Shown here: positions 8,297-56,264 of the stretch, in pieces
Layout of the letters: every line of letters begins with the position of its first letter
Position numbering within the stretch: the first letter of the stretch is position 1
The notes under the pieces: generated by a model
Told to the model about the DNA's origin: nothing
Databases searched by the model: none
What the model saw: the letters and a program-made list of their open reading frames with translations, nothing else
Assembly (NCBI GenBank): GCA_963777155.1
Contig: CAVZPM010000037.1
Location: forward strand, 1-64,000
Source: Candidatus Bathyarchaeota archaeon
GTDB lineage: Archaea > Thermoproteota > Bathyarchaeia > Bathyarchaeales > Bathycorpusculaceae
Reading direction: 5' to 3'
Length of the DNA: 64,000 nt
Made by a program: the position numbers and the translations under genes

Positions 8297-8568
8297 TAAT
8301 ATACCATGACTAGGCGCGCGCTTACGATTAAAGCCTAAACATCAATCACAGATACACCAGCCTTCAATAGCCCCAAATTCGCCAACACTACAGAAAACTC
8401 AACCGCGCGCGTTAATCCTCGAATTAAAGGAAAATAGGAAGAGTAAAAATGCAAAAACTCTTTGATTTGTAGCTTCAAGTTAATTTATCCAGAGCCTACT
8501 CAACCCCATTTTAATCCACTTTTAAATCAAAAAAAGGGAAGGGAGATAGGTTTTATTTGTTTTAACTG

Positions 8569-11374
8569 TTATGGTTTTTTCCTTAGGATTAGCAATGTTA
8601 CTGCAAAGCAGACAACGATAACTAGTATTATGGCGACGATTCCTGGTAGAATGTATTGATCGGCAATTGATTGAGTTGGTGTTGCAGTGGGTGTTGCGGT
8701 TGGGTGTGCTGGTTCTGCTGTGAATGTTGTTTCAGATGATGATGGCCAGTATCCGTTGGTGCCTGCGAATGTTGCGATGACTTTGAAGTCGCCTGGAATA
8801 TCAGGGATCCAGGTAAGGCTGTAGAGTCCTTTTGCATCGGTTGTTGCTGTGCCTATTGAGCGGAAGTTGCCGTTTGAGTCTAAGACGTTGATTGTAACGT
8901 CGACGCCTGTGAAGTTAGAAGGTAAGGGTTTTTGTTGGTAAACGTAGCCCATCCAATCTTTCATGCTGGCGTCAGATGCGACAGGAACTCCGTCTGGGAA
9001 GCGTGCGGCTTGTTCTGATTGCTGTGTGCCGGTTGCAGTATCTGTCACTGTACCTCTAATGACTATCGATGACCCAAAAGCTTGAGCTTCAACGTCCATG
9101 GCGCTGGGTCCTCTACCGATACTGTAGATATTGTTGTCTAGACCGTTCATGAATACACAGAAGCCGTCTGCGGTTGCCCATTGGTTAGCAGCGCTGAAAC
9201 CCCAAGTGCTTGGATATTCTGATAGTTGCCATATTTCTTCTCCGGTGGTAGCGTTAAGTGCGCGTGCTGTGCAGCCTTTGTAGAATGGGTTGGGCATTGT
9301 GTGTTCATCCGTGGCTGTGTAGACTACGCCGTTGGCTATGGATTGTATCATGGTTGGGTAGACTCCGTAGAAGACCTGTAAGCCGCCGTTGGTGCTGTTG
9401 CCTTCGCCGCCGTTGCCGTGTGTCCATAATAGTTCGCCAGTTAAATCATCATAGCAGTAGGTGATTCCTCCGAAGCCAGCATTATAGAAGTTGCCATATG
9501 CTGTTGTGCCTAAAACTGGCTGTCCAGGGTCGAAGTAGTAGTTCCAAACCGATTGGGGTTCGGTTGTCCAAAGAAGGCTGCCGTCCTTCATGCTGTATCC
9601 TTGCCAATTCAGTGTTTCCATTAGTTGTATAATGTAGACATGAGTGTCAAAGTCTACTGCACTCTGTAGCATAGTTACGTTGCCTGGTATCGGATTGTAT
9701 GTTTTGGTCCACAGTATGGAGCCAACTTGTCCTTTGGATGCGTTGAGGTTAACTGCGAAGTAGGTATATGGACTCTGATCTGCGCCGTTCTTGTTTGCTG
9801 CAAAACCTGATGGGTAGGTTGCCGCTTCTAAGGAGCATCATGTCTCCATAGTTTGCTGCTTGTACCGAGGGCGCTGGGGTCATGGTGTTCCGCCAGGGTA
9901 TCGATACGTTCCAGTCATAGGTTGTTAGGCCGTGACTTGGTGCGTTGGGGTTCACAGTGGTTGAGTTTATGGGGATGTCTGCGTTGACTATGATTGTGTC
10001 TGCGTAACTAGTGCTTGTTTGGGGCTGCGGATTGGTTCCTACAAGGGCGTTATTGGTTGAATTCACAAGTGTTGGTGAAAGACTACCTCCACCGGTGAAT
10101 GGATTAATGTCGTACTGCCATAGTTTGGATGAGTTCCACTGTTGAAGATACCATGCTGGGTTTGCGGTTGTGCCCTCATTCTTTATTACGTACCTTACTA
10201 TTTCACCGCTTGGACCCATAACTGCTGTGCCTGATGGGACATTTGTTACGTTGAACATTTGTTCTCCTGTGTATGCATCAAAAGCCCGGGCAAAGTTGGT
10301 TGTAAACAGTATGGGTGAGAAAGTTCCATGTTGCTCTTGATCCCAAAGATTGTATATGTAGCCAAACGAGAGTGCTGGTACATCGTTGCGGGACCAAAGC
10401 ACACGTCCTGTGCGAAGATCTAAAGCGGTAGTTGGTCCACTGGCAGTCCCTGTGATTGCTATTGGCTGCTTGTAGATGAGAATGCCGCCGACTATTATCG
10501 GATTGACGAATCTTGGCAGGTATGCGGTTCCCTCGAAAAATTGGACTCCCTGAACAGCGCCATTTGGATTGTTGCCGCCTTCAACAAACTGGTTTCCGCC
10601 GACAACTCCTCCTAACTGCAATAGTCGTGTCCACATAACGTGGGGAGTTAAAGGTCCAACTGCATCGTTGTGGTAAATTGTTTGGTCTGTGGTGCTTGCA
10701 GCGCCTCCTGAAACTGGAGAACCGGTACCCAGCCAGTTTGATGAGATTTTCCACCAGTCAGTGTTTTCACCGTAGATTGGGTGTGTCCAATACTCCTGTG
10801 GAAGCGGATAGCTAGTTATGGGTGAGGGTATAGAGTCTTGTTGTACGGTTAACGTTGTAGATGCAGAGCTTGCCAAATATTTATCGCCCATCAAGCTTGA
10901 TCTTTCATAGCCGTTTCCGTTCTCACCGTAGATTTGTCCGGGGAAACTGAATTTCAAAGTGTAGGTTCCAACTTGGTCTGGAGTGAATTTGGTGTATTGG
11001 TTTGAGGTTGTATCTGAGATGACTGCGAAGATTTGTGTGGTTGTTGTGCCATCAGGGGCTGTTATTGTCAGATTATAATTGCGGAAGCGGTAATTATTGG
11101 ACAGCAATGCTGCGCTGGCAGTCGAACCGTTGGTTCCAACCGCTGCGGAGGTGCCTCCAGCTGCTCCGTAGACGGGGTCAAGCCACATGTAGACATGGGC
11201 TTCTTGACCGGCACCTATTGGATCAGGTGCTGCTACAACGTAGGCATAAGTTGGGATTTCCCATGGTGGTGAATGTGCACTTGCAAGTAGAGTTAGATCC
11301 ACTGAAGCTGTCATGGATATTGTTAGAATTGCTGCGATCAATATAGTCAGAGTCTTATTTTTTATTTTCTGCAT
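8569..11374 (-). CDS. PQQ-like beta-propeller surface protein, paralogue 1 (frameshift ~9750-9810)
   Basis: Signal peptide, AH.P.W.IPTY, SNWLG, PHVMW, xxTGxxxW repeats, FPDGVP..SD.SM, Ig-like domain, PT linker, TM+RKKP. Confidence 0.85.
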
Positions 11375-11632
11375 TTCTGTTTTTCTCCACTATATTATTA
11401 TTGAACAGTAACAATCTTTCCTAAAAATCTGTAACTGCTCAACGTTTCTAGTTCTGTTGTTATTAGCTTATAATCCTTTTGCGAATTGACAATTGATGAT
11501 GAACTATCTCTATCCATTTTTCAGGTATTTCAACGATTTTTAAACATTCATCAAGTGGCTAAGGTGTGGTTTCAAGCGTTAGCCCTTCTGACATTAAAAA
11601 AGCTGCTGAGTCAGATTCCGCAGGCGCTTCTA

Positions 11633-11699
11633 CTTTTCAAAACGCTCTGACAGCAACATTATCACTTACCCAACGAACTTAATACAAGAATTTATTCAT
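11633..11699. repeat. Direct repeat copy 2; encodes truncated MLLSERFEK* remnant
   Basis: Matches 8233-8296. Confidence 0.75.
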
Positions 11700-11864
11700 G
11701 AGTATCATAGACAATTCAACTCAGTCAAATTATCGGGATAGCGAATAATTGTTGTCCTGCAATTTTCCCTGGGTTTGGAATTAAATTTTAACCTTTCGTT
11801 CTCTAGTGTGTGAACGAATAGAACGACGTGTGCGTTCCAGCTCACTAAATAGCCACTGAGCTCA

Positions 11865-12128
11865 TTAACTGTAAGCTTTTTCCCTAGTGCCCACATAATG
11901 AATCAATATCGTCTTTTGCGTCCACAAAACATCATACACTATTCTAATCGAGCCAACCCTGATCCTGTAAGTGTTATCATAGCCCTTTAGCTTGCAGATA
12001 TCTGTCTTTTTAAATGGAAGAGGATCAGTTTTCAGAAGCAAAATGGTTTCTTTTAGATTCCGTTTCTGTTCCAAATCTATTTTGGCTAGGTTTTTGAGTG
12101 CTTTTCTTTTGATTTTAACGTTAAACAT
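11865..12128 (-). CDS. relE: RelE/ParE family toxin
   Basis: KLKGYDNTYRIRVGSIRIVY...VGTREKAY. Confidence 0.85.
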   Translation of the reverse strand: MFNVKIKRKALKNLAKIDLEQKRNLKETILLLKTDPLPFKKTDICKLKGYDNTYRIRVGSIRIVYDVLWTQKTILIHYVGTREKAYS

Positions 12129-12133
12129 TCATT

Positions 12134-12316
12134 TCAGCCTAAGGTTTGCATTAGCTCTTTCTCGTCTGCTACTTCGTCTTTTTCTTCTATAGCTCTCTTT
12201 TCTTTTTGGGTTGCTTTCTCAACAGGAATAAGTTTGTCTACCAATTCTTTGTAGAGAAGCTTGATTTCCTGCAGTTCTTCTCGAATTTCCTCCAAAACCT
12301 TAGTGCTCAACCACAT
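12134..12316 (-). CDS. Putative antitoxin
   Basis: Small acidic ORF immediately upstream of RelE; EKATQKEKRAIEE motif. Confidence 0.7.
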   Translation of the reverse strand: MWLSTKVLEEIREELQEIKLLYKELVDKLIPVEKATQKEKRAIEEKDEVADEKELMQTLG

Positions 12317-12482
12317 AGCCTCATTGATAGTTATGCAAATTCGAATTTATGTATATTGATAATTTTGCAGTTCCTGAAGCGGTAGAACCGGAATTGATTG
12401 GCACAATACTGTGTTTGCGTTTTTTTGTGGTAAACCAGCAAACCAACGGTTGTCAACATTCGAACACACTTCAAGCATCTAA

Positions 12483-12749
12483 TCATCTGTTGGGTGTTCT
12501 GGTTTCTGCTACTTCTTTTTGGATTTCACTTTCAGAAAGTTTCAGGTTTTTCTTGTCCATGACCTTGAAGATTTCGTTCCATTCTTTCTTCATGTCAGGG
12601 AGCTCGAGCTTTTTCATTATGATAGTGTCGCCTTTGCCGATAACCAGAAACTTGGTTTTGGGCTTTATTCCAAGCTCTTTTCTTATTGATTGTGGGATTA
12701 CTATTTGCCCTTTTTCGCTGATCGTGGTGACTTGAGGTTCTTCTGACAT
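12483..12749 (-). CDS. AbrB/MazE/SpoVT family DNA-binding protein
   Basis: TISEKGQIVIPQSIRKELGIKP. Confidence 0.9.
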   Translation of the reverse strand: MSEEPQVTTISEKGQIVIPQSIRKELGIKPKTKFLVIGKGDTIIMKKLELPDMKKEWNEIFKVMDKKNLKLSESEIQKEVAETRTPNR

Positions 12750-13224
12750 ATCCCATCAGTAAGATTATTTTACTTTCCTACTGTTAAGGGTTCGTCCAAA
12801 ATAATAAGTTGATGCCATAGGGAAAATAGATCCTTTCTTAAAAGAAACACTTACAAGATTTCTTGCCTAAGCATAAATTGAATCGCTGGGGCTTCGTGAA
12901 TTTACCAGTTATCAGAAACTAGTCTATCCTTCAGGAGGTGGCGACTTTTCCTGGTGTTCCTTGAGTTTTCGTTTGTGATAGAATGCACATCATCAGGATC
13001 CAAGAAGACACCTGCACACATGTCTTTGTACACGTCGTTTAGGGCAGGGTTCTTAGGAGGGAACCACAGTGACTACCCATCAATTTAGGTCACTATGAAT
13101 TCAGAGGCAAGATTTCAATGCAGCTTAGAGTCAGCTATTGGAGTGCGTGTTATCTTTATTCTCAATTCAGATTCAATCTTCATAAAACATACTAATCATG
13201 TTTTAAAATAGAGGGTAAGGAAGC

Positions 13225-14283
13225 TTGACAATGAATAGGAGACCTATAAAACTAAACATAGTCATTGTCGTGCTAGCGATATGCTTTATTTTGGCGACTT
13301 CGAAGCCTGTAAACGCTCAAGAAGCTGGCTATTCACATATCTGTTACCAGACTTCTTCAACAACTCTCCCCACGATTGATGGCCAGTGGGGTTCAGAGTG
13401 GAATAGTGGTTTGCAGACCACTTTTGGAACGAACACTAACTTTACGGACGAATGGTACTTAGCCTCGTCTAGTCCGAGTGTTGTTTACTATTATCTCCTG
13501 ATTGAAACTATGGATAATTCGAATGAAACAGGGGATTTTGTTCAAATATGTTTTAACGGTGGCATGACAGCGGATTCCGCGCCTTCATCCACTGATTTTG
13601 CAATTAACTTCACAAGTAATGCAGTCTGTACGTGGTACCGAGGAAATGGAGTAGGATGGACTCAAATAGCCACACCTTCATTATCTGTATTCGAATGGAG
13701 TGAATCGTTTAGTCCTTCGCCCACCAATAGTGCACCGCATTTGATACTTGAAATTATTCTGTTAAAAACCTCGACTGATCTGGGGGGTTCACAGATTATT
13801 GGTTCAGAATTTTGGATGCTTCTCCAAACCTACGACGCACACTTTGCTGGGTCTGCGGTTCAATCGTGGCCAACAGTGCCACCGTCTAGTCCCGACGTAC
13901 CAAAAACCTATGGAGATATACCCTATAGCATGGGCGCAGCCCCTAATTACGCCCAAGGATCAAATCAAGTACCTAACGCAACCCCAACTCCCACACCATC
14001 GTCCACACCTACTCCAACACAAAAAACATCACCTACTCCAACCATAGTTCACACTCCAAACCCCACCACAAACCTAACAGCTACTTCAACGCCTAGCTCC
14101 ACTCAAATTCCTTCGCCTACACCTCAATTCAAAAATGAATCCGCCTTCAGTTCCTGGGATATTCTTTTTGTGCTAGCGATTATCAGCGTTGAATCTGCCG
14201 TTGTAGTTATCTATCGGATAGCTCCTGCAAAAAAAGTATTAATAGGGCACGCAAGCAACGCATCTGACGATAATCTGAATTAG
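13225..14283 (+). CDS. Secreted membrane-anchored protein, DOMON/CBM9-like sugar-binding domain plus PT linker
   Basis: Signal peptide, PTIDGQW..EW, D.VQICF, EI.I motifs, PT-rich linker, C-terminal TM. Confidence 0.65.
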   Translation: MTMNRRPIKLNIVIVVLAICFILATSKPVNAQEAGYSHICYQTSSTTLPTIDGQWGSEWNSGLQTTFGTNTNFTDEWYLASSSPSVVYYYLLIETMDNSNETGDFVQICFNGGMTADSAPSSTDFAINFTSNAVCTWYRGNGVGWTQIATPSLSVFEWSESFSPSPTNSAPHLILEIILLKTSTDLGGSQIIGSEFWMLLQTYDAHFAGSAVQSWPTVPPSSPDVPKTYGDIPYSMGAAPNYAQGSNQVPNATPTPTPSSTPTPTQKTSPTPTIVHTPNPTTNLTATSTPSSTQIPSPTPQFKNESAFSSWDILFVLAIISVESAVVVIYRIAPAKKVLIGHASNASDDNLN

Positions 14284-14617
14284 TACTGTTAACTATCGCT
14301 AAAATTTCATTTGAACTAAAAGAAAAAACATAATTGTTTTTGGAGGGTTGATAATTACTAGTTTGTGCCTTAAGCAAAAACAGAGTCCTTGGGTGGGAGT
14401 GTGGTGTCATTTAGGACACCAGTAGATTCCACCGCCTCCATGTTACCGCAAACATCGCAAGGTTTACTCAGAATGAAATAATAGAAAAAACCCATGACCT
14501 CTGAAGTGTTATAGACACTTTAGAGAATTACTGACAGTAATTCGGCAAAACCCTATTTCTAGTGTCTCAATGTTGGACATCAAGTTCTCTACAGCGAAAT
14601 AACAGATTGTTTATTAG

Positions 14618-14863
14618 TTGTGTGTGCTCGTAAAGAACTTGGGAGCTTTCTTGATTAGAAAAGAAGCAATTTCCTTTCTGAAGGAATTGGCAGAGAACGA
14701 CCTTGTTTTGGCATTTATGGTTGACATTCAAAGAAGAACCCCTAACCATTATCAACTGCGGATCAAAGGCAATTATGAACCTATCGGAATTAGGAAATTA
14801 ATTAAGGATAGGGGTTTTTCGTATGAAGTCAAGCAAGACATGTTAGTTGTTTTCAAGCCTTAA
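14618..14863 (+). CDS. Small hypothetical protein (paralogue of 60580..60828)
   Basis: RKEAISFLKEL...LVVFKP resembles RIQALDLLKEI...LTIYTP. Confidence 0.6.
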   Translation: MCVLVKNLGAFLIRKEAISFLKELAENDLVLAFMVDIQRRTPNHYQLRIKGNYEPIGIRKLIKDRGFSYEVKQDMLVVFKP

Positions 14864-14922
14864 TCCCAACGTCCCAATTTAGCTTCCCAAATCTGTAGTC
14901 GACAGAGCGAGTTATTTTGCAG

Positions 14923-18830: not shown

Positions 18831-18936
18831 CACAACTTTTCGCAGGATAAGCTCAGTCAGTAGCTTCAAACTATTTAGCGGTCAACCTAAAATAATACAA
18901 AATGGCTTTTGCGATCTCGCTAAGACAGACAAATTA

Positions 18937-19236
18937 TTATTCTGTGCATTCTGAGATTTCGGGGTTTCGGGTTAATTCATCAAGAGATTTGTTTAGCAGT
19001 ATGTTGTCTCCGATTTGAGAAACTAGTGAGGTAGGCACGCATACCGTTGAGCTTCTGAATCTTTTTTTGAATCCAAGGTCCTCACATGCTAGTTTTGAAA
19101 GCTTGACATGTAAATGGGTAACCTGCCAATTGCTAGTGTTTATTTCTATTCCATTAACATTTCCAAGGTCAAAACCACCTGCACAAATAACAAACATTCC
19201 AGAAAGTTTATCAAAATCCACCAAAATTATCGCCAT
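18937..19236 (-). CDS. PRC-barrel domain protein, copy 1
   Basis: LSGMFVIC..G.DLGNV.GIEI...WQVTHL...IGDNILL. Confidence 0.85.
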   Translation of the reverse strand: MAIILVDFDKLSGMFVICAGGFDLGNVNGIEINTSNWQVTHLHVKLSKLACEDLGFKKRFRSSTVCVPTSLVSQIGDNILLNKSLDELTRNPEISECTE

Positions 19237-27948: not shown

Positions 27949-28032
27949 TTGTGTTTAATAAAAATATAGGGTGACTCAAATTCTAAATTTGGGCATTTTG
28001 TATTGTTCGGTAGTCCTTGTGTTTTGACGACT

Positions 28033-28215
28033 TACTACTACTCTCTCTAAGACACACAAATAAGCGAATGAACCAAGTCTTTAAAGCTAAATCCTCAATA
28101 AAGAACCCGTAGGAACATTAGCAAAATGGCTAATAAGAGCAATTAGTGCGGACTTCTTAAGACTAAAAAAGGGGAAAGATAGTTTTGTTTGCTTTTTATT
28201 TATGGTTTTTTTCTG
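28033..28215. repeat. Conserved 3' tail class A of beta-propeller genes (also 36746-36928)
   Basis: Near-identical ~180 bp from ctactactctctctaagaca to ...gatagttttgtttgct. Confidence 0.9.
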
Positions 28216-31340: not shown

Positions 31341-32609
31341 ATGGCTTTAGATCCAGTTCTGAGGGCAATAGTGACCATATGCATATTGGTTTTCTCAGCT
31401 AAGGTACTGGGTGAAATTTTTTCGTGGAGAAAAATTCCCTCTGTTCTGGGCGAGTTGCTTGCAGGAATCCTGCTTGGACCGTACGCTTTAGGCTCTCTAA
31501 TCGCCATAAATGGAGCACCTGTAATTGAAATAAACGAAATTGTCCGAGCATTCGGAGAGATAGGCGGCATACTAATCCTTTTTGTGGCGGGTTTAGAGAT
31601 GACTTTTAGAGATTTCCGAAAAGTCGGCACAGCAGGATTTGTCATCGGAACACTCGGCGTTATTATTCCGTTCATAATGGGTTACGGACTTTCGATAGCT
31701 CTCGGGTTAGACACAATAACGGGTTTGGTAGTTGGTGCGGCGCTTGTAGCCACAAGCATCTCTATAACCGCTTTGGTTCTGCAAGAACTTAATCAATGCA
31801 GAAAGGTAGAATCAAGAATAATGATCAGCGCTGCGGTTGTTGATGACGTGTTGGGACTGGCAATCTTAGGTGTCATCGTCTCATTCATATCCACCTCAGC
31901 CCCTATTACTCCATTAAGCGTGATTGTCGTAATTTCTACTTCTCTTGCATTATGGTTAACCTTGACAGTTTTTGCAGCGATTATTCTTCCAAAAATAATT
32001 AATTTTACTTCGAAAGGAAAAGAAGGAGTTGTTGAGGCAGCAGCTACGGCATCATGTTTTGGTGCTTCCGCGTTAGCGGCTGTCTTGGGTTTGTCACCTA
32101 TTGTGGGTGCTTTTGCTGCAGGTATGGCTGTTGCGAGTTCCAATGCGATTGAGAAAATACGCGATTACACCAAGAAAATAAGCATTGTTTTTTCGCCTGT
32201 ATTTTTTGCGTTGGCAGGAGCACAATTTGACATTAGGAGCTTTATTACTTCTGACTGGTTCTTCTATCTCTTCTTCATAGCACTCGTTGTAGTAGCTATT
32301 ATTAGCAAAATGATTGGATGTGGAATCCCAGCTGCCTTCTTTTTGAAAGACCGCTCAAAAGGTGCTAAAGTAGGTTATGGAATGATTTCACGAGGAGAAG
32401 TAGGACTTATAGTGGCTGGAGTTGCCATCTCAGCAGGAGCTATTACACAAAGCACGTATGCCGCAATCTTGGGAATGATCATGGTAACGACAGTTTTAGC
32501 GCCCATACTTTTGAGAAGAGCGTACGATAAAGACCCACCTGAAGAAATAACATGCCAAACAGACGAAGACACAAACGCACCCGACTACATGCCCACTTAT
32601 CCACTTTAA
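31341..32609 (+). CDS. Cation:proton antiporter (CPA2, NapA/KefB-like)
   Basis: GELLAGILLGP, ATSISIT, AAVVDD, GMISRGEV. Confidence 0.93.
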   Translation: MALDPVLRAIVTICILVFSAKVLGEIFSWRKIPSVLGELLAGILLGPYALGSLIAINGAPVIEINEIVRAFGEIGGILILFVAGLEMTFRDFRKVGTAGFVIGTLGVIIPFIMGYGLSIALGLDTITGLVVGAALVATSISITALVLQELNQCRKVESRIMISAAVVDDVLGLAILGVIVSFISTSAPITPLSVIVVISTSLALWLTLTVFAAIILPKIINFTSKGKEGVVEAAATASCFGASALAAVLGLSPIVGAFAAGMAVASSNAIEKIRDYTKKISIVFSPVFFALAGAQFDIRSFITSDWFFYLFFIALVVVAIISKMIGCGIPAAFFLKDRSKGAKVGYGMISRGEVGLIVAGVAISAGAITQSTYAAILGMIMVTTVLAPILLRRAYDKDPPEEITCQTDEDTNAPDYMPTYPL

Positions 32610-32864
32610 GCTAAAGTTTCTATGAAATGGTTGTTTCATTTGATTGGCTAAGGGGCTCCATCCATTGTATAAATTTAGCAACAAATGAATGACCCAACGC
32701 AACCAATGAAGCTACAAACAACCCGTTAAAGACACTTAGTATCACCAGTTTCCAAAGTCAGTCCAAACAAAAAAATACTGGAATGTGTTCCATAGGTTCG
32801 TGATTAGGTTTTTTGTCGAGCTAAAACATTTTCGATATTTTTCCGTTTTGCATTTCTCAATTTG

Positions 32865-33240: not shown

Positions 33241-33482
33241 CTAAAGTAGGTTATGGAATGATTTCCCGAGGAGAAGTAGGACTTATAGTGGCTGGAGCAG
33301 CAATCTCGGCTGAAGCTATCACGCAAAGCACATATGCCGCAATCTTAGGAATGATAATGATAACGACTCTTTTGGCACCGCTACTTCTAAGAAGAGCCTA
33401 CGATAAAGATCCCCCTGAAGAAGCAACATTAACAGAAGACGAAACAAACGCACCCGACTACCTACCAACCTACCCACTTTAA
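33241..33482 (+). pseudogene. Duplicated 3' fragment of the CPA2 antiporter
   Basis: Near-identical to 32365-32609; similarity continues past the stop codon. Confidence 0.88.
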
Positions 33483-33521
33483 ACTAAAGCTTCTATGAAA
33501 ATAGCCGTTTCGTTTCATTGG

Positions 33522-36149: not shown

Positions 36150-36316
36150 GATTTAATATATTGTACAACCCCAATAAATATTTTGTGCACAAAACTTTTG
36201 TAATGTTGAAAGCAAGGAGAACGCTACCAAATGGCTACAAAAACGCCATCAAACGATGCTTCAAAAAACGCAAAAAAATTAAAAAACAGTAGATAAAAAA
36301 AATGGCTCGATTTCAA

Positions 36317-36619
36317 CTATTCTTCTACACATTCCGAAATTTCTGGATTCCGGGTTAGTTCATCAAGAGATTTATTTAACAGTATATTGTCTCCGAATTG
36401 AGAAATTAGTGAGATAGGCAAGCATACAGTTGAACTTCTGAATCTCTTTTTGAATCCAAGGTCCTCAGATGCTGGTTTTGAAAGCTTGATACGTAAATGA
36501 GTAACCTGCCAATTGATTGTGTTTATTTCTATTCCATTAACATTGCCGAGGTCAAAACCACCTGCACAAATAACAAACATACCAGAAAGTTTATCAAAGT
36601 TCACCAAAAATACCGCCAT
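36317..36619 (-). CDS. PRC-barrel domain protein, copy 2
   Basis: Near-identical to 18937..19236. Confidence 0.85.
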   Translation of the reverse strand: MAVFLVNFDKLSGMFVICAGGFDLGNVNGIEINTINWQVTHLRIKLSKPASEDLGFKKRFRSSTVCLPISLISQFGDNILLNKSLDELTRNPEISECVEE

Positions 36620-36745
36620 TCTAAAATAAACAAAATCAGAGATTTAATTCTTTCTATGATTCACATATTGCCGGTTAAAAATTTTCCATCTTTCTTTTCT
36701 GTTAGCTGAACACTCTTTCTTTCTCTTAATTTCTACCGCTAATTC

Positions 36746-36928
36746 CTACTACTCTCTCTAAGACAGACAATAAGCGAATGGATCAAGTCTTAAAAGCTAA
36801 ATCCTCAAATAAAGAATCTGTTGGAACATTAGCAAAATGGCTAATAACGGCAATTAGCACGGACTTCTTAAAACTAAAAAAAGGGAAAGATAGTTTTGTT
36901 TGCTTCTTAATTTATGGTTTTTTTCTGA
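36746..36928. repeat. Conserved 3' tail class A, second copy
   Basis: Matches 28033-28215. Confidence 0.9.
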
Positions 36929-49402: not shown

Positions 49403-49440
49403 CTAGCAAAACATAGCTGACTAATCGAGTTTTCCGATTG

Positions 49441-49662: not shown

Positions 49663-49787
49663 ATAGACTTACTTCACAGCCTCTTTCTATTTTTAAGGCA
49701 ATATTAAGCTTTGTTATCTTTTTCCGCCAATCTTTAGCAAATTATAAATACAAATTACTGCATACATTAAATCCCGAGGTTATTTCA

Positions 49788-49844
49788 ATGGCGAAGAAAC
49801 CAGCTAAAAAAGAAGTAAAAAAAGCCCCAGCAAAGAAAAAGTAA
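49788..49844 (+). CDS. 18-aa Lys/Ala/Pro-rich peptide MAKKPAKKEVKKAPAKKK
   Basis: TTATAAATA box at 49742, GAGGT RBS, T-rich terminator at ~49875. Confidence 0.7.
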   Translation: MAKKPAKKEVKKAPAKKK

Positions 49845-50047
49845 ACCCTCGGGATAGGAATGTTTACCTCACTATTTTTTCTTTTTGTCAATGCACAACT
49901 TAAAGAATTGTTATGGTTTAGGGCATATGGTAAGTGTGCAAAGAAAGTTCAGGTTTGATGTTGCACTAGTTTTCAGACGCACTCAACGTGAGCGCACTAT
50001 TCTCATAGCGGAATAATGTTTTTCTTCCTGACTATTAGAATGTTGAA

Positions 50048-50341
50048 TTGCTATCCATGTTGTCTGAAGATACGAAATTAAGAGACTTGCGAGAGAGAAT
50101 TAGAGACGTTACCATAAACGAAAGAAACGGTTTACTGATAATCATTATGGGCGTGTTTCTCTTTTGTTTAGGTTTAGTTTTCATTGCTATGGTGAACAAC
50201 AGCCTCGTATCTGTTGGAGGAATCTTCAGTTCAGCACTAGGCATTTTTTCGACTTTGTTTGGATTCTATGTGGTAGTGCATTATGCTCATCAATACAACA
50301 ACCTGCAAAAAGAATTGGAGCTTGCGCTATCAGGGTTCTAA
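50048..50341 (+). CDS. Small 2-TM protein
   Basis: ORF track; hydrophobic helices. Confidence 0.65.
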   Translation: MLSMLSEDTKLRDLRERIRDVTINERNGLLIIIMGVFLFCLGLVFIAMVNNSLVSVGGIFSSALGIFSTLFGFYVVVHYAHQYNNLQKELELALSGF

Positions 50342-50557
50342 ATAGAACGATGGGATTTAAACTTGGGACAAGTAGCGAAGTCTCCCGCACAACCCCATTT
50401 TTGCCATTCAACTAGTCTGTTCCAAAAATTTCTAAAGAGATAAAATTTACAATGCCTCTTTGATTTTAGCTTCAACAGTTAAATTTATCCAGAGTCTACT
50501 CAGCTCTGGTCTTAAACATAAATTGAAACTAAAAAAAGGGAGGGAGGTTGTTTTTTT

Positions 50558-53182
50558 TTATGGTCGTTTACGCATCATCATCAATGCCAGTATAGCGCCT
50601 ACCACGATTATTACAATGAATAGGCCAACTGAAACTGGGATGAAGTACATATCGGCTACTGATTGTTGTTGTGTTGTGGGTTCAGCCGTTGGATTTGCCT
50701 GGATGTCGAAGGCTACGGATGTTTGAGCTGATGAGCTATAGTAAGAATTTGATCCACCGAAGGATGCTGTTACTGTATATGTTCCTGGTACGTCGGGTGT
50801 GAAGGTGTATGAGTATTGTCCGTTGGCGTCGGTTGTGGTTGTTCCTATGACAAAGTAGTTGTTGTTGGGGTCAATGTATGAGAGTGTAACTGGAACACCT
50901 GTGGCGTTTGTTGGTTTAGGTGACTGCATGTAGAGGTATTCCATCCATCTGGCCATTGAATCGTCAGAGACTGCTGGTGTGCCTGCCGCAGGGATGCCAA
51001 GACAGGTTTGACCCGGAGACTGGTCTGTGACTGTTCCTGTGATCATGATCTTTGCGTTGTTGTTAATGACTGGCGCTGTCGCGACTGTTGTTGCGGTCTG
51101 TCCTCTGCCGTAGCAGTAGATTGAGTTGTCGTAGCCGTTAAAGGATAGCATGTAACCGTAGACGACCGGTAGACTTGAGCCGCTGGCAAAGTTGAGTATG
51201 TCCCAAACTTTTTCGCCTGTTGTTGCGTTAAGAGCATAGATTTTTGCACCGCTGAATAATGGTGGGCCATAGTCGTGTCCTGTTTCAACGTAGATCATAC
51301 CATCAGCTACTGAAGCTTCATAGTTGCCGATGATCCAGAGTGGGTTTACTCCGTATGGTGTGTCTGGTGTTTCGCCCGTACTCCAGTTCCAGATCTTCGT
51401 GCCTGTTGTCATGTCGAAGCAATAGACTTCTCCGCCGAAAGTCCATGTATAGAGTTTTCCGTAAGCACAGACTGCGCTGGTTTGGTCGTAATAGGCTAAG
51501 GGGTTCTTCATGGCTTCGGTTGGACCCCATACTTTGTCTCCAGTTGCTACACTGAATCCATCGAAAGTGAATGTTTCTTTTGTGTATCTTGCAAATGTGC
51601 CATTTGATGCGCCTGGCATTACCATTGTTGCTGCGAAAGGCGTGTTTGTAATGTTCTTAATCCATGATTGCTGACCATTATCCATGTCAACAGCGACATG
51701 CATTACCCATCCTGGGTTCCACCCATAAGATGCATACATTCCGGTACTGGTAGTCAATATGATCGTGTTAGTATCTGGATCCCAAACAGCGTGACCTGCA
51801 CCATCAAGTATCCAGTTGGGAATCGCATCGCCAGTTGACGTCTGGTTTGGAAGGATCGTTGACCACATTATACCGTCGTTGTATGGGTAGTTGCCGTTCT
51901 GTTGCCAGTTAAAGAATTGACTATTAGCTTTGTTTGTGCATTGGCTTGAATTCCATAAGTTCAGATATTGCCTACTCTTTCCACCGAAAGTAGCAGTGCT
52001 TAGATATAATTGCAGTAAACTACCGTCTTTTCCCATGAATTCCTGTCTTCCAAATGATCCACTGCCGCCGCCTCCCTGTATGCTGTAACAGTAGTTGCCT
52101 GTGGCTGCATCAAAAACGTCAAGGTATGTTACTCCAGATGTAGTTCTGGTTGCCCAGAGGTATGCTTGTCCACCGTAAGTGTTGTATGTCTTGTATATGT
52201 AAATCTGTCCGCAGAGTAGTATATCCTGTGAACCGTTCGAGAAGTAGTTGTTATAATTCTTTGTCCAAAGAGATTTGCCTGTTCTAAGATCGACAGCTGT
52301 GAAACCCTGATCCAACGAGTTGAAGTTTGGCTTTAGATTGTAGTAGAGTATTCCATTCATTATGATTGGTGCGAATTTAGGTTGATACTGAAAGCCTGAG
52401 TAATAGTTAGTTTCCGCGTTTCCTATGCCACCAAATTCGCCGCCTAGCTGACCACCGACATTAGATCCTGGAACGACAGTATCCTTCCAGATGATGTGTG
52501 GAGCTAAGACTGCTTTGGTGTATGGGTTGAAACAACCTGCAAAGGTATAGCCGCCTGTGTTTGCAAATTCAACATCACCAAGTCCCCACCAGTTGCCAGA
52601 GAATTCAGTCCACCAGTGGTTGAAGGCTTGTACGGGGTGTTGCCAATAGTCTGCTGGAAGCGGATTTTCCGGAATTGTAGTGTAGGGTTCATTCACAACA
52701 GTGAAAGTTATGATAGAACTTTCAGATGCTCCGTAGACGTCGCCAATAGAAGGACTAGTGCTGCTGTTGAAGCCGGGGTTTCCTTGAGCACCAGTCATGA
52801 CTTCACCTGGGAATTTCATTTGAGCAGTGTATGTGCCTAATATGCTAGGGGTATATACGGCTGTGTAGCCTCCTGCGTCGTCTGACTTAAATGGTCCTAA
52901 GGTTTCTTTGCTGCCATCGGGCTTAACAATTTCAATTTTCATGTCGATCCATCGGTCACCTAAGACGCCGTTTGCTGTTGGCGGTGGTTTATCAATCCAC
53001 ATTACCATCAAGGCGTTTTGGCCGATACCAACTGTGTCTGGGACTACTTGGAGGTAAGCCCAAGTTGGGATTGTGGTTCCTGGGAATAGAGCTGAGTTCG
53101 AGGGGGATATAGTTGTTGCCGCAATTGAGAATATCAATAGCGTCGTAATTGCAGCGAGAGTTTTTTTAACAATTTTATGCAT
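50558..53182 (-). CDS. PQQ-like beta-propeller surface protein, paralogue 4
   Basis: GGAGAAG RBS before MHKIV; GHDYGPPLF; TM+RKRP. Confidence 0.88.
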   Translation of the reverse strand: MHKIVKKTLAAITTLLIFSIAATTISPSNSALFPGTTIPTWAYLQVVPDTVGIGQNALMVMWIDKPPPTANGVLGDRWIDMKIEIVKPDGSKETLGPFKSDDAGGYTAVYTPSILGTYTAQMKFPGEVMTGAQGNPGFNSSTSPSIGDVYGASESSIITFTVVNEPYTTIPENPLPADYWQHPVQAFNHWWTEFSGNWWGLGDVEFANTGGYTFAGCFNPYTKAVLAPHIIWKDTVVPGSNVGGQLGGEFGGIGNAETNYYSGFQYQPKFAPIIMNGILYYNLKPNFNSLDQGFTAVDLRTGKSLWTKNYNNYFSNGSQDILLCGQIYIYKTYNTYGGQAYLWATRTTSGVTYLDVFDAATGNYCYSIQGGGGSGSFGRQEFMGKDGSLLQLYLSTATFGGKSRQYLNLWNSSQCTNKANSQFFNWQQNGNYPYNDGIMWSTILPNQTSTGDAIPNWILDGAGHAVWDPDTNTIILTTSTGMYASYGWNPGWVMHVAVDMDNGQQSWIKNITNTPFAATMVMPGASNGTFARYTKETFTFDGFSVATGDKVWGPTEAMKNPLAYYDQTSAVCAYGKLYTWTFGGEVYCFDMTTGTKIWNWSTGETPDTPYGVNPLWIIGNYEASVADGMIYVETGHDYGPPLFSGAKIYALNATTGEKVWDILNFASGSSLPVVYGYMLSFNGYDNSIYCYGRGQTATTVATAPVINNNAKIMITGTVTDQSPGQTCLGIPAAGTPAVSDDSMARWMEYLYMQSPKPTNATGVPVTLSYIDPNNNYFVIGTTTTDANGQYSYTFTPDVPGTYTVTASFGGSNSYYSSSAQTSVAFDIQANPTAEPTTQQQSVADMYFIPVSVGLFIVIIVVGAILALMMMRKRP

Positions 53183-53461
53183 TTTTTCTTCTCCTTTGTT
53201 TATTTGGCAAAAATAGCGCTGGCTACTGTTTGCCAACGCTTAAACGGTATCTAATGTTTTATTATAAATAACTTGCTAGAATCGTCAACCAACGTTAGGG
53301 GTAGATTAACCCGATGTTCGGGCTAGGAAAAATCTAAAACCTCTTCGATCGCAGCTTCAATCGCGTAATTTTTAACCGGAGCGTACTCAGCTCATTTTTT
53401 TCTCTAATGTTTGTTAAGGACTAAAAAAAGGGGAAAGATAGTTTTTATGGCTGTAGAGTTT

Positions 53462-56077
53462 TTACGGTCGTTTTCTCTGGAACAATATTATCAAAGCGCC
53501 AACCACGATGATGACAATGATTATAGCAGCGACAGATGGAACGAAATATTGGTCAGTAACAGATGGTGATGCTGTCGGAGCTGGAGTTGCTGTTGGAGCA
53601 GGTTCACTTACTGTGAAGGATGTTTCAGCTGCTGAAGGATAGTAAGATTCGGAACCATCAAAGCTTGCGTAGACAGTGTAATCGCCGGGTATGTCTGGAG
53701 TCCAAGTGAAAGTGTACATGCCGCTGCCGTCGCTTGTGGTGCTGCCGATGCTTCTGTAGTTTCCGTTAGAGTCAAGAACACTGATGTTAACCTTGACACC
53801 GGTAGTGTTTGTTGGGCATGGCTGCTGCATATAGACATACTCCATCCATGCACTCATGCTTTCGTCAGAAACACATGGGACACCAGTTGGGAAGTTTGTG
53901 GCTTGTGCTAGTTGTTTTGTGCCAGCAGAGATATCCACAATTGTACCTCGTATCACCATTTTTGAAACGAAGGGTTGGACTTGAACGGTCATTTGCGATG
54001 GCCCTTTGCTATATGCGTATATTTGGTTATCGTATGCATTCAACGCCATCATGATGTTGTCCACGATTGGAGCCCCATTTGTCACGTCAAAGCCTAGTAT
54101 CTTCCAAATCAGTGATCCGTCTGTAATGTTTAGTGCCAGTTGTTGTGCTCCTCGGAAAAGAGGCGGACTGTACTCATGGCCCACGTTAAGGAAATATACG
54201 CCGCCAGCAATAGACCCACCGCTGAAGACCCAAAGTGGCCAGACACCATAAGGAGTATCAGAGCCAGCTTCGCCGATGAGCGTGTTAGTATTTGTATACC
54301 AGAGTTCTTCTCCTGTCAATATGTTAACAGCCCACACGTCGCCTCCAAAGCCAATTATGTACATTACGCCGTTAGCAAGTTCTGTTTGGTAGCCTCCGAT
54401 GCTGTTGTAAGGATTCGGTACTGGGAAATTGCCGTTGTCGCCTGAAAGCTGTACTGGACCCCATACAAGAGATCCTGTGTTCAAGCTGAAAGCTCTGATT
54501 GTTCCTTGGGTTGCCTCAAGCCTAATTTCTAGTCCATATCCGACTTTTGTGATTTGGTCTCTTACGAAGGCGCCTAATGTTCTGTTGGTTAGCCATAATT
54601 GTGTTCCCGTGTTAGAGTTGAAGCCTGCTTCGATGCCATAGCCAGTGTTGAAAGTTCCAGACACGTCTGGTGAGGGCACTGCAGTCATAAGTACAACACC
54701 GCTGTTGACAGAGTTGATTGCCAGATTCTGCGGTAGTGGAACGCCTGAAAGGTTAGTTGGTAATGGTACTGTCCATACTATTCCCCGCTTGAAGTCAATG
54801 ACGCTGTTTTGGAGAGGTCTCCAATTCCAATTCGCCACTGTTGTTCCAGGTATGAATTGACTGTTGGGGTATAGAATCGCTTGTGTCGAGTTCCACATGT
54901 TCAGTGTCGGTGCAGTTGGAATTGAAGCGTTTACGTAGTAGCCTATTATATTGCCGCTTTGATCCTCTGTAAGCGTCATCGCAGAGCCGTTGACAATGCT
55001 AAGAATGAAATTGCCTGTTGAAGCGTCCCACAGATTCCAAATAGCGCCATTTACGCTTGGACCAGTTCCGAGATTAAACGGATTGATTAAGAGAGGGTTG
55101 CTCCACAAGTATGCTGTTGACCCAAACTGGTTGGGGTTCACCATCTGGAGTAATTGTCCGCACCTTAAAATGTCAGTAGTATTCTTTGTCCATAGAGTTT
55201 GTCCTGTACGTATATCTACTGCAACCCAGCCGCCTGGGGAAACATATGCTCCAGGATAGGTAACGTAGTACATTATGCCGTTTATGATGATTGGTGCCCA
55301 TTTTGGCTCGTATTGCGAAGTTGAGTAGTAGTTGCTTGTGTCGGTGCCTCCGAATTCTCCTCCAACTAAGCCTCCGAATGCAACTGGCTTTGTCCAGAGA
55401 ATGTGCGGCGCCTTTGGCGCGTCAGAGTAAGGATTGTAGTTTGAGGTGATGTTGTATCTTCCAGTGTTAGCAAATGAGTGTGCTCCGAATCCTAGCCAGT
55501 TTCCAGTTATAGAAGACCATACACCGTTTCCTGCTTGTACGGGGCGAGTCCAGAATTGTGTTGGAAGTGGATTTGTCGAAATAGGAGGTATTGCTTCTTC
55601 CTGAACTGTAAGAACAACAGTCGGACTTGTAGATGGTTGGAAGTAATCGCCAATATAGGGGCCAAAACCGCCGTTGGCTCCTAATAGTGTTTCACCTGGA
55701 TAGCTGAAAACAAAACTGTAATTGCCAAGTTTAGTAGGGGTATATAGTGTGTAGGTTCCGCCGGTATCGTCAGAGGTAAAGGGACCTAATGTTTCGGTTG
55801 TTCCATCTGGGTGTGTAACTGTCACTTTAAAATTGTGCCATCTATCTCCAGTTGCTGCAACAGCAGTTGGTGGTGGGATTTGGAGCCACATGCCAATGGT
55901 TACTGTTTGACCAAGACCCGCTGGGTCAGGTGCAACGTTAATGAAAGCATACGTTGGAATTTGCCAAGCAGGTGAATGAGCATTAGCACTTGGTAGTAAT
56001 AGTGTTGAAGTTCCTGTAGATGCCATCAAAATTGTTACAATCAAAATAGCCATAGATTTACTAGTCAGTTTTTTCAT
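53462..56077 (-). CDS. PQQ-like beta-propeller surface protein, paralogue 5
   Basis: GGAGA RBS before MKKLT; GHEYSPPLF; TM+RKRP. Confidence 0.88.
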   Translation of the reverse strand: MKKLTSKSMAILIVTILMASTGTSTLLLPSANAHSPAWQIPTYAFINVAPDPAGLGQTVTIGMWLQIPPPTAVAATGDRWHNFKVTVTHPDGTTETLGPFTSDDTGGTYTLYTPTKLGNYSFVFSYPGETLLGANGGFGPYIGDYFQPSTSPTVVLTVQEEAIPPISTNPLPTQFWTRPVQAGNGVWSSITGNWLGFGAHSFANTGRYNITSNYNPYSDAPKAPHILWTKPVAFGGLVGGEFGGTDTSNYYSTSQYEPKWAPIIINGIMYYVTYPGAYVSPGGWVAVDIRTGQTLWTKNTTDILRCGQLLQMVNPNQFGSTAYLWSNPLLINPFNLGTGPSVNGAIWNLWDASTGNFILSIVNGSAMTLTEDQSGNIIGYYVNASIPTAPTLNMWNSTQAILYPNSQFIPGTTVANWNWRPLQNSVIDFKRGIVWTVPLPTNLSGVPLPQNLAINSVNSGVVLMTAVPSPDVSGTFNTGYGIEAGFNSNTGTQLWLTNRTLGAFVRDQITKVGYGLEIRLEATQGTIRAFSLNTGSLVWGPVQLSGDNGNFPVPNPYNSIGGYQTELANGVMYIIGFGGDVWAVNILTGEELWYTNTNTLIGEAGSDTPYGVWPLWVFSGGSIAGGVYFLNVGHEYSPPLFRGAQQLALNITDGSLIWKILGFDVTNGAPIVDNIMMALNAYDNQIYAYSKGPSQMTVQVQPFVSKMVIRGTIVDISAGTKQLAQATNFPTGVPCVSDESMSAWMEYVYMQQPCPTNTTGVKVNISVLDSNGNYRSIGSTTSDGSGMYTFTWTPDIPGDYTVYASFDGSESYYPSAAETSFTVSEPAPTATPAPTASPSVTDQYFVPSVAAIIIVIIVVGALIILFQRKRP

Positions 56078-56264
56078 TTTTCTTTTTCTCCTTTTTCTTT
56101 CTGGATACGACATCTATAACAAAGTTAATTTAAAACTTACGATAGACCAACAAAAGCATCTGACAAAGAAAACAAATAACTACAGAATAGTCGATATTGT
56201 ACGAAAAAAACACCAAACATAAAACAGGAAATACTTAAATGACGCCCCACAATCAAAATGATAA

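Follow-up and report, generated by a model that had tools for sequence, protein, structure and literature searches.

A 3′ module with an inverted-repeat element behind an expanded family of PQQ-like propeller genes in Bathyarchaeia is probably homogenised by short-tract gene conversion

We found that the 3′ ends of an expanded family of propeller-protein genes in a Bathyarchaeia genome sort largely independently of the proteins that precede them, and we consider it probable that short-tract gene conversion homogenises a 3′ module made of the end of the anchor coding sequence, an oligo-T block and an inverted-repeat element. One of these genes is a mosaic, the element lies behind genes of this family in related genomes, and elements group by genome; gene conversion is the mechanism that we infer from these observations. 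The window, 64,000 nucleotides long, is contig C37 of a genome of 2.29 Mb in 39 contigs. The original prediction had counted five divergent propeller paralogues in it, and all five are found where it placed them, on the minus strand. P1 (8569-11374, EH clade) is split by a frame break in the assembly into two ORFs (8569-9672 and 9749-11374). P2 (28200-30851, EH clade) is intact, encodes 883 aa and has as its sister a frameshifted copy on contig C33 (94% amino-acid identity). P3 (36912-39499, GH clade) consists of two overlapping ORFs with one frame break, and its sister is C1_9574 (63%); the breaks in P1 and P3 may be real or assembly errors. P4 (50558-53236) is intact and forms a deep branch of the GH clade, its true start being likely the ATG at 53182, and P5 (53462-56113, GH clade) is intact, with 883 aa.

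The five genes are members of a large family in Bathyarchaeia whose proteins are predicted to be secreted and anchored at their C-terminus, with a propeller that is PQQ-like by fold and profile. The domain order, as predicted, is a signal peptide, an Ig-like domain, an eight-bladed PQQ-like propeller, a second Ig-like domain and a transmembrane anchor. The fold check that had been proposed gave, for P5, an AlphaFold2 model (mean pLDDT 75.8) with an eight-bladed propeller between two Ig-like domains and a transmembrane helix; Foldseek placed BamB and PQQ dehydrogenase propellers first, the top hits being BamB, tetrathionate hydrolase and methanol dehydrogenase (E 6e-15 to 6e-11); sequence identity to solved propellers is 10-16%. 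The Pfam profile PQQ_2 (PF13360, curated cut-off 27.6 bits) matched P4 (40.0 bits), P5 (42.6) and the C-terminal ORF of P3 (29.1) above the cut-off, and P2 (21.3) and the C-terminal ORF of P1 (25.2) below it. A homologue of P5 is labelled by NCBI 'PQQ-binding-like beta-propeller repeat protein [Candidatus Bathyarchaeia archaeon]'. Collecting paralogues genome-wide, as had been suggested, yielded about 24 family loci. Among them are 19 long ones (8 intact, 10 broken, one of these with 15 stops, and 1 truncated at a contig end) and C-terminal fragments that still bear tails (C18, two on C34, C38_90473). The proposed split by motif, P1 and P2 against P3, P4 and P5, extends to all 19 long loci: 11 are of the 'EH' class and 8 of the 'GH.Y.PPLF' class, and the two classes are clades in the ectodomain tree, with support of 100/99. 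The claimed contrast between a diverged propeller core and a conserved C-terminal Ig domain is likewise real, mean identity among P1-P5 being 31% for the former and 52% for the latter.

No sequencing run contained more than 0.17 of the words sampled from 50100-56200. Contigs from three RNA libraries of three studies (X1, X9 and X11) align, at 90-99% identity, with portions of the coding sequence of P4 and P5, and the tails of the two genes are free of them; as assembled contigs are interrupted at repeats, they are informative neither about transcript ends nor about an absence of tail transcripts. The joints between P4 and P5 have short sides of 22-34 letters at 90% likeness; we take these to be other paralogues or other organisms and not chimeric molecules.

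The common T-rich, terminator-like block that had been predicted is present behind all five genes. The stop codon of P1-P5, and of all the other family 3′ ends inspected, is followed by an A-rich stretch, then a C/T-rich block and a run of six to eight T; in P1, the C/T-rich block and T-run occupy 8529-8540 (minus strand). Oligo-T runs act as transcription terminators in archaea, and the T6-8 run is likely such a terminator. On the two strands of the genome together, there are 10 occurrences of the exact word TTCCC[CT]TTTTTT, 5 of them within 90 nt of a family stop. Beyond the block the tails vary: two tail types had been implied, but most other family loci in the genome carry different, unrelated ones.

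P2 and P3, whose propellers are 26% identical, share the first of these tails (type B). The P2 tail (28032-28201) aligns with the P3 tail (36743-36912) over 171 nt at 89.5% identity (E 1.8e-58); the tail is thus shared as claimed, but 'near-identical' was too strong for sequences that have 18 differences in 171 nt. The common module spans 28032-28264 in P2 and 36743-36975 in P3, both on the minus strand, and comprises in P2 the last ∼62 nt of coding sequence (the end of the transmembrane anchor), the stop, the terminator block and the 171-nt tail. Among the 190 pairs formed by 20 family loci of this genome, it is the sole high-identity tail between non-sister loci and the one clear exchange. 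Upstream of the module, P2 resembles its C33 sister (94.4% nucleotide identity); the homology of these two is limited to the gene, starting 17 nt ahead of the ATG and reaching the anchor, and their flanks are unrelated. A maximum chi-square analysis placed a breakpoint in P2 62 nt before the stop, with 0 of 1000 permutations as high: to its left, 1126 sites agree with C33 versus 45 with P3, and to its right, 3 agree with C33 versus 30 with P3. P2 is therefore a statistically supported mosaic with a C33-like body and a P3-like 3′ end, in line with the recombination at the conserved 3′ end that the original prediction had put forward. The upstream flanks of P2 and P3 are unrelated, as is the sequence beyond +171. 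Either P2 or P3 would have taken over the other's module, from ∼62 nt before the stop to +171; parsimony, applied to the one sister copy, suggests the direction P3 to P2, and at P2 the incoming module probably displaced a family element that is still present in the C33 sister. A weaker case of exchange was seen between C38_32625 and C20/C38_58097 (0.81 identity in the last 123 nt).

The same pattern could be produced by a chimeric join of the metagenome-assembled genome at the repeated anchor and terminator sequence, and an assembly in 39 contigs with many frame breaks lends itself to such a suspicion. However, with 18 differences in 171 positions the tails are not a collapsed repeat; since their identity stops at +171, an artefact would need two mis-joins within ∼230 nt; the longest exact words that the modules have in common are of ∼25 nt; and a like mosaic is present in a relative assembled as a single contig (G003). 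We regard an assembly artefact as extremely unlikely. In 60 relatives, the type B tail finds matches for no more than its first ∼60 nt, which are the stop and the terminator block, and this rules out a conserved element; an exact 25-mer from it is absent from species-representative genomes, a collection that may omit the window's own genome. A structured RNA is ruled out by the fold z-scores of the tail on both strands (0.78, -0.91, 1.0 and -0.46). A shared promoter of a common downstream gene is ruled out too, the ORFs after P2 and P3 being different and without a Pfam family, and opposite-strand ORFs in the tails are not conserved between the copies. Rfam gave no match for either the type B or the element tail.

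The second tail motif, claimed for P1, P4 and P5, was confirmed by alignment: P1 and P4 tails are 77% identical over 106 nt (E 1e-10), and the P4 and P5 tails each match further copies on the contig (E 1e-10 to 5e-9). This tail is a decayed copy of an inverted-repeat element of ∼105 nt, for which we used a covariance model, R1. The P1 copy (8402-8510, minus strand; 36.4 bits, E 1.3e-5) keeps the 5′ arm and two inner hairpins and has a mutated 3′ arm. In P4, only the 5′ half is present (50454-50507, minus strand; 5′ arm and first hairpin), and in place of the 3′ half stands a fragment of 59 nt (50395-50453, minus strand) that is 85% identical to the 5′ coding part (57785-57843) of a DUF1294 gene. 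The P5 copy (53300-53394, minus strand, the lower coordinate being approximate) has lost the 3′ arm, and its 5′ arm and two hairpins can still be made out; R1 does not recover it at E <= 0.01. A further copy (57417-57523, minus strand; 46.2 bits), whose 3′ arm is intact and whose 5′ arm has decayed, sits 87 nt downstream of a DUF1294 gene, which is not a family gene. P1, P4 and P5 would thus keep decayed remnants of an ancestral family element.

A 19-nt inverted repeat with a 2-nt bulge delimits the element and encloses a variable interior. Could the element be a functional RNA, either a small RNA gene or a read-through 3′-UTR structure, with selection keeping the tails alike? Such a small RNA would have its own promoter in the A/T-rich stretch ∼20-27 nt upstream of the element, and the unpaired UUUUCUCC, an invariant part of the element, might bind ribosome-binding sites of the GGAG type by base pairing. 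In 73 distinct copies, 97.4% of the cells of the arms are paired, and the closing stem has 6 compensatory cells at 4 pairs, a value reached in 0 of 500 shuffles. RNAfold gives a mean z-score of -2.9, with 27 of 34 below -2, and in some copies inner stems vary on both sides (AGAGC/GCTCT, AGAGG/CCTCT, AGCGCA/TGCGTT). Upstream, a GGAGA word and an A-rich stretch are conserved, and the layout of gene, terminator and element is kept in another taxonomic family of the order (G052). All of this fits an RNA. Against it, Rfam 15 yielded no gathering-score match for the element in the window and none for 10 element loci at E up to 1, and the inner hairpins are variable and no better than shuffled controls, 31 of 63 second hairpins having stems of 3 bp or less. 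The arms are kept as sequence, with few compensations, which recognition by a protein or as DNA would explain equally well, and the element sits past the T6-8 run that is expected to end transcription. Moreover, selection alone leaves three observations unexplained: the clustering of elements according to genome and not to orthology, the shared tracts that reach into unrelated flanks, and the type B tail, which has no fold signal. We consider a functional RNA as the cause of the likeness unlikely. A three-way junction is not claimed for the element, since the census of interior hairpins did not beat the shuffled controls. K-turn, bulge-helix-bulge, box C/D and H/ACA motifs, an integron attC site and a diversity-generating retroelement were considered by inspection of the sequence and dropped, the motifs expected from their consensus features being absent. 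The only Rfam matches were one to a tRNA and a chance one to a microRNA (E 0.67).

The element is patchily distributed and closely tied to the gene family. R1 finds 13 matches in this genome and 27, 22, 23, 15 and 16 in five relatives; by BLAST, the element is in 36 of 61 genomes of the genus, and by covariance model in 17 of 81 genomes, representing 6 of the 46 sampled genera of the order. A family gene 3′ end lies directly upstream, on the same strand, at 23 of 28 element loci in relatives. In two relatives, G003 and G064, 28 of 40 loci are preceded by an ORF of at least 800 aa, with 60-70 nt between its end and the element; family members account for 27 of these 28 ORFs. One tail type is thus a discrete, conserved element, as the notion of tails as separate elements had supposed. 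The companion idea, a mobilisation element, amounts to a non-autonomous transposon (MITE) that is mobilised in trans and strongly favours the terminator region of the family as its target; tails would then sort independently through insertion or mutual replacement of elements. The 19-nt terminal inverted repeats around a variable interior, the 13-27 copies per genome, the patchiness within the genus, the near-identical, sharp-ended copies behind unrelated paralogues (L071 and L077 of G064) and the copies away from family genes (5 of 28 loci in the relatives and 12 of 40 in G003 and G064) are all as expected of a MITE. By the test applied, however, it does not behave as one: target-site duplications are absent from 64 distinct copies, no k-mer of 2-9 nt at any offset exceeding expectation by more than ∼5 copies. 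Its orientation and its spacing of 60-70 nt after the stop are constant, most copies (23 of 28 and 28 of 40) occupy a single kind of site where a transposon would be found at many unrelated ones, the flank before the element is conserved as well, and the drop of R1 bit scores with host distance fits vertical descent. A MITE is accordingly quite unlikely.

That tails sort independently of protein clade, the central claim of the original prediction, holds in this genome and in two relatives. Of 32 gene-element pairs in three genomes, a single one has its closest element behind the gene of its closest protein. For 25 of the 32 pairs, the closest element comes from the pair's own genome, where set sizes would lead one to expect ∼12; the closest protein does so for 13 of 32. 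Element distances average 0.264 inside a genome and 0.333 across genomes. Protein and element distances are weakly and positively correlated (Mantel r 0.30; 1 of 2000 permutations as high); co-duplication also contributes. Two pairs serve as examples. In G003, L062 and L064, whose proteins are 37% identical, share a tract of 93-96% identity that begins ∼110 nt ahead of the stop and runs ∼130 nt beyond the element. In G064, the 95% identity of L071 and L077 is confined to the element and stops exactly at its ends; for pairs of this type, a mobile or replaceable unit fits as well as conversion that uses the invariant arms as anchors. What is exchanged is short: the last 60-110 nt of coding sequence, the terminator block and the element, with or without ∼130 nt beyond it. 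We propose that the family grew by duplication and that each gene ends in a module of three parts: the transmembrane-anchor codons, ending R-K-[KR]-P; an A-rich spacer with the C/T-rich block and T6-8 run; and, ancestrally, the ∼105-nt element some 60-70 nt after the stop. Being the most conserved DNA common to all copies, this module would be the substrate for short-tract, non-reciprocal recombination within a genome, and tails would therefore mirror recent exchange and not the old protein tree. The accessible text of PMC11276520 documents gene conversion in Haloferax.

A bolder proposal was that the conserved 3′ region anchors a cassette system in which whole ectodomains are swapped between loci for cell-surface variation, as in VSG or pilE/pilS genes. 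The family is secreted and diverse, the P2/C33 homology spans just the gene between unrelated flanks, and several loci are C-terminal fragments with tails, which would all suit a cassette. Against it, the tree of the C-terminal Ig domain and anchor keeps the sister pairs of the ectodomain tree and does not reject the EH/GH split (p-AU 0.35), and most tracts carry the tail only. Orthologues are recognisable between genomes at 60-79% identity, so that the repertoire is stable; the 10 broken copies among 19 long ones, including that with 15 stops, resemble decay and not a maintained archive; and neither an expression site nor a 5′ repeat was found. Surface variation is not needed either, the published reading being enzymatic or redox: the accessible text of PMC11697101 describes an expansion of secreted PQQ-domain proteins in Bathy-6 and proposes that they act on lignin or in electron transfer. 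We therefore hold ectodomain swapping to be very unlikely, and gene conversion of the 3′ module remains our preferred reading.

Bathyarchaeia are among the most abundant uncultured archaea, and a conserved, multi-copy non-coding element with a directly testable function has been identified in them. It is an unlikely but attractive idea that the element is a cis-acting signal dedicated to the family, either a small RNA that couples or excludes the expression of sister genes or a cruciform hot spot of conversion. In the first case, it would be transcribed behind every paralogue, and its invariant, CUCC-containing single strand would pair with the GGAG ribosome-binding sites of sister genes; in the second, the cruciform would start the surrounding conversion tracts, and the element would be the archaeal equivalent of the conserved 3′ ends at which variant surface genes recombine. 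In both cases, the element would represent a new archaeal class, preserved since at least two taxonomic families of Bathyarchaeia diverged, and a regulatory RNA or recombination signal of this kind would be a rare gene-family-specific non-coding partner in Archaea. The host genes matter in their own right, expanded secreted PQQ-like proteins being thought, in the accessible text of PMC11697101, to be central to the use of lignin-like substrates by Bathyarchaeia. Exchange of 3′ modules between distant paralogues calls for caution when 'recent independent expansions' are dated from the similarity of gene ends, and the covariance model may serve as a marker for family members and their 3′ ends in fragmented metagenomes.

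Gene conversion of surface-protein genes with conserved 3′ ends is known from trypanosome VSG, Neisseria pilE/pilS and Borrelia vls. The present family is like these in its divergent extracellular parts and in the conserved 3′ coding and flanking sequence where recombination ends; unlike them, its tracts carry the tail and not the ectodomain, and no expression site, ordered silent archive or evidence of programmed switching was found here. The element itself recalls the ERIC/IRU, REP/BIME and Correia repeats, which according to the accessible text of a review (PMC10969869) are multi-copy, extragenic units of ∼100 nt with terminal inverted repeats; bacterial palindromic repeats, it states, are often in transcribed 3′ flanks, and ERIC at the 3′ ends of Yersinia genes alters transcript levels. 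It differs from those repeats in being archaeal, tied to one gene family in fixed orientation and spacing, placed after an oligo-T run and without target-site duplication, and Bathyarchaeia are absent from the list of archaeal MITE hosts in that text. With the PQQ-domain proteins of Bathy-6 (ISME Commun 2024, PMC11697101, accessible text), the family has in common Sec signal peptides, Ig-like domains, duplication within the genome and many copies per genome, there an average of 24 for a single gene cluster of one clade and 46 PQQ-domain genes in a closed genome. The words 'repeat' and 'recombination' are absent from the main text of that paper, as accessible, and so are 3′ flanks, an inverted-repeat element and mosaic genes. 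A further parallel is concerted evolution of paralogue ends by ectopic gene conversion, in which copies within a genome are likewise more alike than orthologues of different genomes in a short conserved segment; unlike concerted evolution in general, here it is confined to a non-coding 3′ module behind proteins that are 24-47% identical in their propellers.

The five propeller paralogues of the window all lie on the minus strand: P1 (8569-11374, two ORFs), P2 (28200-30851), P3 (36912-39499, two overlapping ORFs), P4 (50558-53236) and P5 (53462-56113). Each begins with a signal peptide; a large propeller then lies between two Ig-like domains, and a Thr/Pro-rich linker leads to a C-terminal transmembrane (TM) helix that terminates in R-K-[KR]-P. 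PQQ_2 of Pfam is above cut-off in P4, P5 and the C-terminal half of P3; the AlphaFold2 model of P5 (mean pLDDT 75.8) has BamB, tetrathionate hydrolase and PQQ dehydrogenases as its top Foldseek matches in the PDB, and a P5 homologue bears the NCBI title 'PQQ-binding-like beta-propeller repeat protein [Candidatus Bathyarchaeia archaeon]'. The paralogues had been described as combining divergent propellers with a better-kept C-terminal Ig domain, and their mean identities (31% for the propeller versus 52% for that domain) bear this out; the original observation as a whole was confirmed. The window is bases 1-64000 of contig C37 in a genome of 2.29 Mb and 39 contigs, across which tblastn detected about 24 family loci, 19 of them long: eight are intact, one is truncated at a contig end, five have one frame break and five have several breaks or stops, the most broken having 15 stops. 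Eleven long loci carry the EH motif (P1 and P2 among them) and eight the GH.Y.PPLF or GH motif (among them P3, P4 and P5), and the two classes form separate clades in a maximum-likelihood tree of the ectodomain (support 100/99). P2 has its sister on contig C33, a frameshifted gene with 94% amino-acid identity; P1, P3 and P5 pair with C16_9281 (63%), C1_9574 (63%) and C4_28254 (66%). The protein family and its expansion are already published: for Bathy-6 genomes, PMC11697101 describes one PQQ gene cluster with a mean of 24 copies in one clade, and a closed genome with 46 PQQ-domain genes; the proteins have signal peptides and Ig-like domains, were detected by proteomics and are proposed to serve lignin redox chemistry.

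Straight after the stop, every copy shows an A-rich stretch, then a C/T-rich block, then a T6-8 run, in line with the T-rich terminator-like block first noticed. Oligo-T runs are termination signals in archaeal transcription, and we infer that the C/T-rich block and T-run are a terminator; its exact form TTCCC[CT]TTTTTT occurs ten times in the genome, five of them by family stops. The tail type assigned to P1, P4 and P5 was also recovered: the motif common to them is the 5' part of an inverted-repeat element of about 105 nt (type A). Intact copies begin with a 5' arm, GGGGCTGAG-NN-GGCTCTGG, continue with a variable stretch and the words TTTGCATT and TTTTCTCC, and end with a 3' arm, CCAGAGCC-TCAGC-AAA-CCC, which pairs with the 5' arm. 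Thirteen copies were detected in this genome with a covariance model, which gives the P1 copy 36 bits; those of P4 and P5 are decayed below detection at E <= 0.01, and their 3' arm is gone. In P4, a 59-nt piece (50395-50453) takes the place of the 3' half of the element; at 85% identity it matches the start of a DUF1294 gene (57610-57879, Pfam E 4e-20; counterpart 57785-57843 in its 5' coding part). An element copy with intact 3' arm and decayed 5' arm (57417-57523) lies 87 nt downstream of that gene, which hints that an element and a DUF1294 gene were separated, or brought together, by a rearrangement.

In five relatives the covariance model finds 27, 22, 23, 15 and 16 copies; by BLAST, 36 of the 61 genomes of the genus have the element, and across the order the model detects it in 17 of 81 genomes, from 6 of 46 genera. 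All nine sampled genomes of one genus of another family have it, again behind a family-like gene and a T-run. A same-strand family gene ends directly upstream at 23 of 28 loci from relatives, and 28 of 40 copies examined in two relatives' genomes, G003 and G064, follow an ORF of at least 800 aa, with 60-70 nt between the end of the ORF and the element; family members account for 27 of these 28 ORFs, with all clades represented. The element is therefore an old, conserved companion of the propeller family, and its copies at P1, P4 and P5 are remnants. At the relatives' loci (for example L024-L048), a GGAGA(A) word complementary to the invariant TTCTCC within the element is kept 15-25 nt before it, and the consensus of 64 copies has an A-rich stretch about 16-25 nt before it; they may act as a pseudoknot partner or as a promoter. 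Some 600 nt downstream of the element that follows family copy C38_32625, the opposite strand has a tRNA gene (1246-1319 of L022, contig C38; 68 bits).

The tail common to P2 and P3 (type B), described as near-identical over about 180 bp, is present, at 89.5% identity over 171 nt. It has no further copy in this genome or in 60 relatives, where matches to the P2 tail are confined to its first ~60 nt, the stop-proximal block (20 of 60); an exact 25-mer is absent from the species-representative collection, and neither strand folds better than shuffled sequences. Different ORFs follow in the two loci. From 17 nt before its ATG, P2 is 94.4% identical in DNA to the C33 copy, and a three-way alignment of P2, C33 and P3 places the switch of partner within the TM-anchor codons. 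In a maximum chi-square scan the breakpoint falls 62 nt short of the stop codon: to its left, 1126 sites join P2 with C33 and 45 with P3; to its right, 3 join it with C33 and 30 with P3, a value reached in 0 of 1000 permutations. P2 and P3 have unrelated flanks upstream and unrelated sequences past +171; given this and the switch of partner, P2 is a true mosaic gene, which upholds the proposed recombination at the conserved 3' end. The simplest history would be that the P3 locus, which lies 8.7 kb away, donated about 230 nt to P2, because the C33 sister of P2 retains the type A element; the opposite direction, P3 acquiring its tail from P2, is also admissible. When 20 family 3' ends of this genome were compared in 190 pairs, P2/P3 proved the sole clear sharing between non-sisters; the last 123 nt of C38_32625 are unusually similar to those of C20 and C38_58097.

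The claim that tails sort independently of protein also held. In a set of 32 gene-element pairs, of which this genome contributed 5, G003 11 and G064 16, the nearest element belonged to the nearest protein only once. It lay in the same genome in 25 of 32 cases (about 12 expected from set sizes), versus 13 of 32 for the nearest protein; mean element distance was 0.264 within genomes versus 0.333 between them, and a weak positive Mantel correlation with protein distance remains (r 0.30). In G003, the proteins of loci L062 and L064 are 37% identical, yet their DNA is 93-96% identical over a tract that starts about 110 nt ahead of the stop codon and extends about 130 nt beyond the element, as ectopic gene conversion would produce; anchor and terminator are nearly the same in four G003 paralogues of different clades. 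In G064, 95% identity between L071 and L077 is confined between the two ends of the element, a pattern compatible both with conversion that is anchored in the invariant arms and with a mobile, replaceable unit.

The further proposal that whole ectodomains are swapped through 3' recombination was not supported. A single case, the gene-sized P2/C33 copy between unrelated flanks, is compatible with cassette-like replacement. The detected breakpoints fall in the last 60-110 nt of genes and not between propeller and Ig domain. The tree of C-terminal Ig domain, linker and anchor (151 columns) is poorly resolved; without rejecting the EH/GH split (p-AU 0.35), it retains the sister groups P2-C33, C20-C38_58097 and P1-C11_68929-C16. 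Orthologues 60-79% identical between genomes show a stable gene repertoire.

Decaying family copies were seen at C20 1891-4467 (15 in-frame stops), C33 54928-57590 (three frame breaks and one stop) and C38 58097-60628; the first and last form a whole-locus duplicate with flanks 89-94% identical. C-terminal fragments comprising Ig domain, anchor and terminator, one with an intact element, stand alone at C18 2597-2957, C34 34585-34845, C34 35690-36049 and C38 90473-90919, with no upstream propeller by tblastn; they may be remnants, or different ectodomains on the same C-terminal module. A 933-aa protein of G064 resembles the family in its last 137 aa only.

Of a 300-nt direct repeat in the window (18932-19231 and 36315-36614, 88% identity), the second copy spans a 100-aa ORF without a Pfam family (36317-36619), immediately downstream of the P3 tail, so the P3 surroundings hold another duplicated small gene. 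The 3' end and downstream flank of a Na+/H+ exchanger gene (31341-32609) recur 876 nt on (32365-32627 and 33241-33500, 84-86% identity) in what looks like a partial duplicate, and upstream regions appear duplicated at two adjacent genes (60244-60460 and 61036-61252; three adjoining repeat blocks, 82-87% identity, 792-nt spacing, ending at ATG). A plus-strand gene (56265-57245), divergent from P5 and 152 nt from its start, encodes a protein with two AsnC/Lrp-type HTH and ligand-binding units, a candidate regulator of P5/P4. Another PQQ-repeat protein, unrelated to P1-P5 (41551-43578, plus strand), combines CarboxypepD_reg domains, a canonical PQQ propeller (220 bits to Beta-prop_ACSF4, blades clearly repeated at the DNA level), a Thr/Pro linker and a TM anchor. 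The best share of the P4-P5 stretch in public sequencing runs was 0.17; three RNA libraries gave contigs that match parts of the coding sequences of P4 and P5, with none matching the tails, and assembled contigs cannot show transcript ends.

As to the nature of the element, it has no Rfam match. Pairing is seen in 97.4% of the cells of its terminal stem, which is mostly invariant, with six compensatory cells at four pairs; the interior forms hairpins in many copies, some with stems altered on both sides, and the hairpin census is no better than shuffled controls. Whole-element folding energy is below that of shuffles (mean z -2.9; 27 of 34 under -2), which the inverted repeat alone would explain. 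No target-site duplication was found across 64 distinct copies, so a defining feature of a MITE is absent, which speaks against the suggestion that the tails are mobilisation elements. Literature searched by full text yielded no mention of 3'-module exchange or of a family-linked element, which does not establish absence from print; the words 'repeat' and 'recombination' are both absent from the main text of PMC11697101. The finding would matter more if the element were a regulatory RNA or a recombination signal. Among known systems, 3'-module exchange is of the kind of ectopic gene conversion among paralogues, and the element is of the kind of ERIC/REP-like extragenic palindromes.
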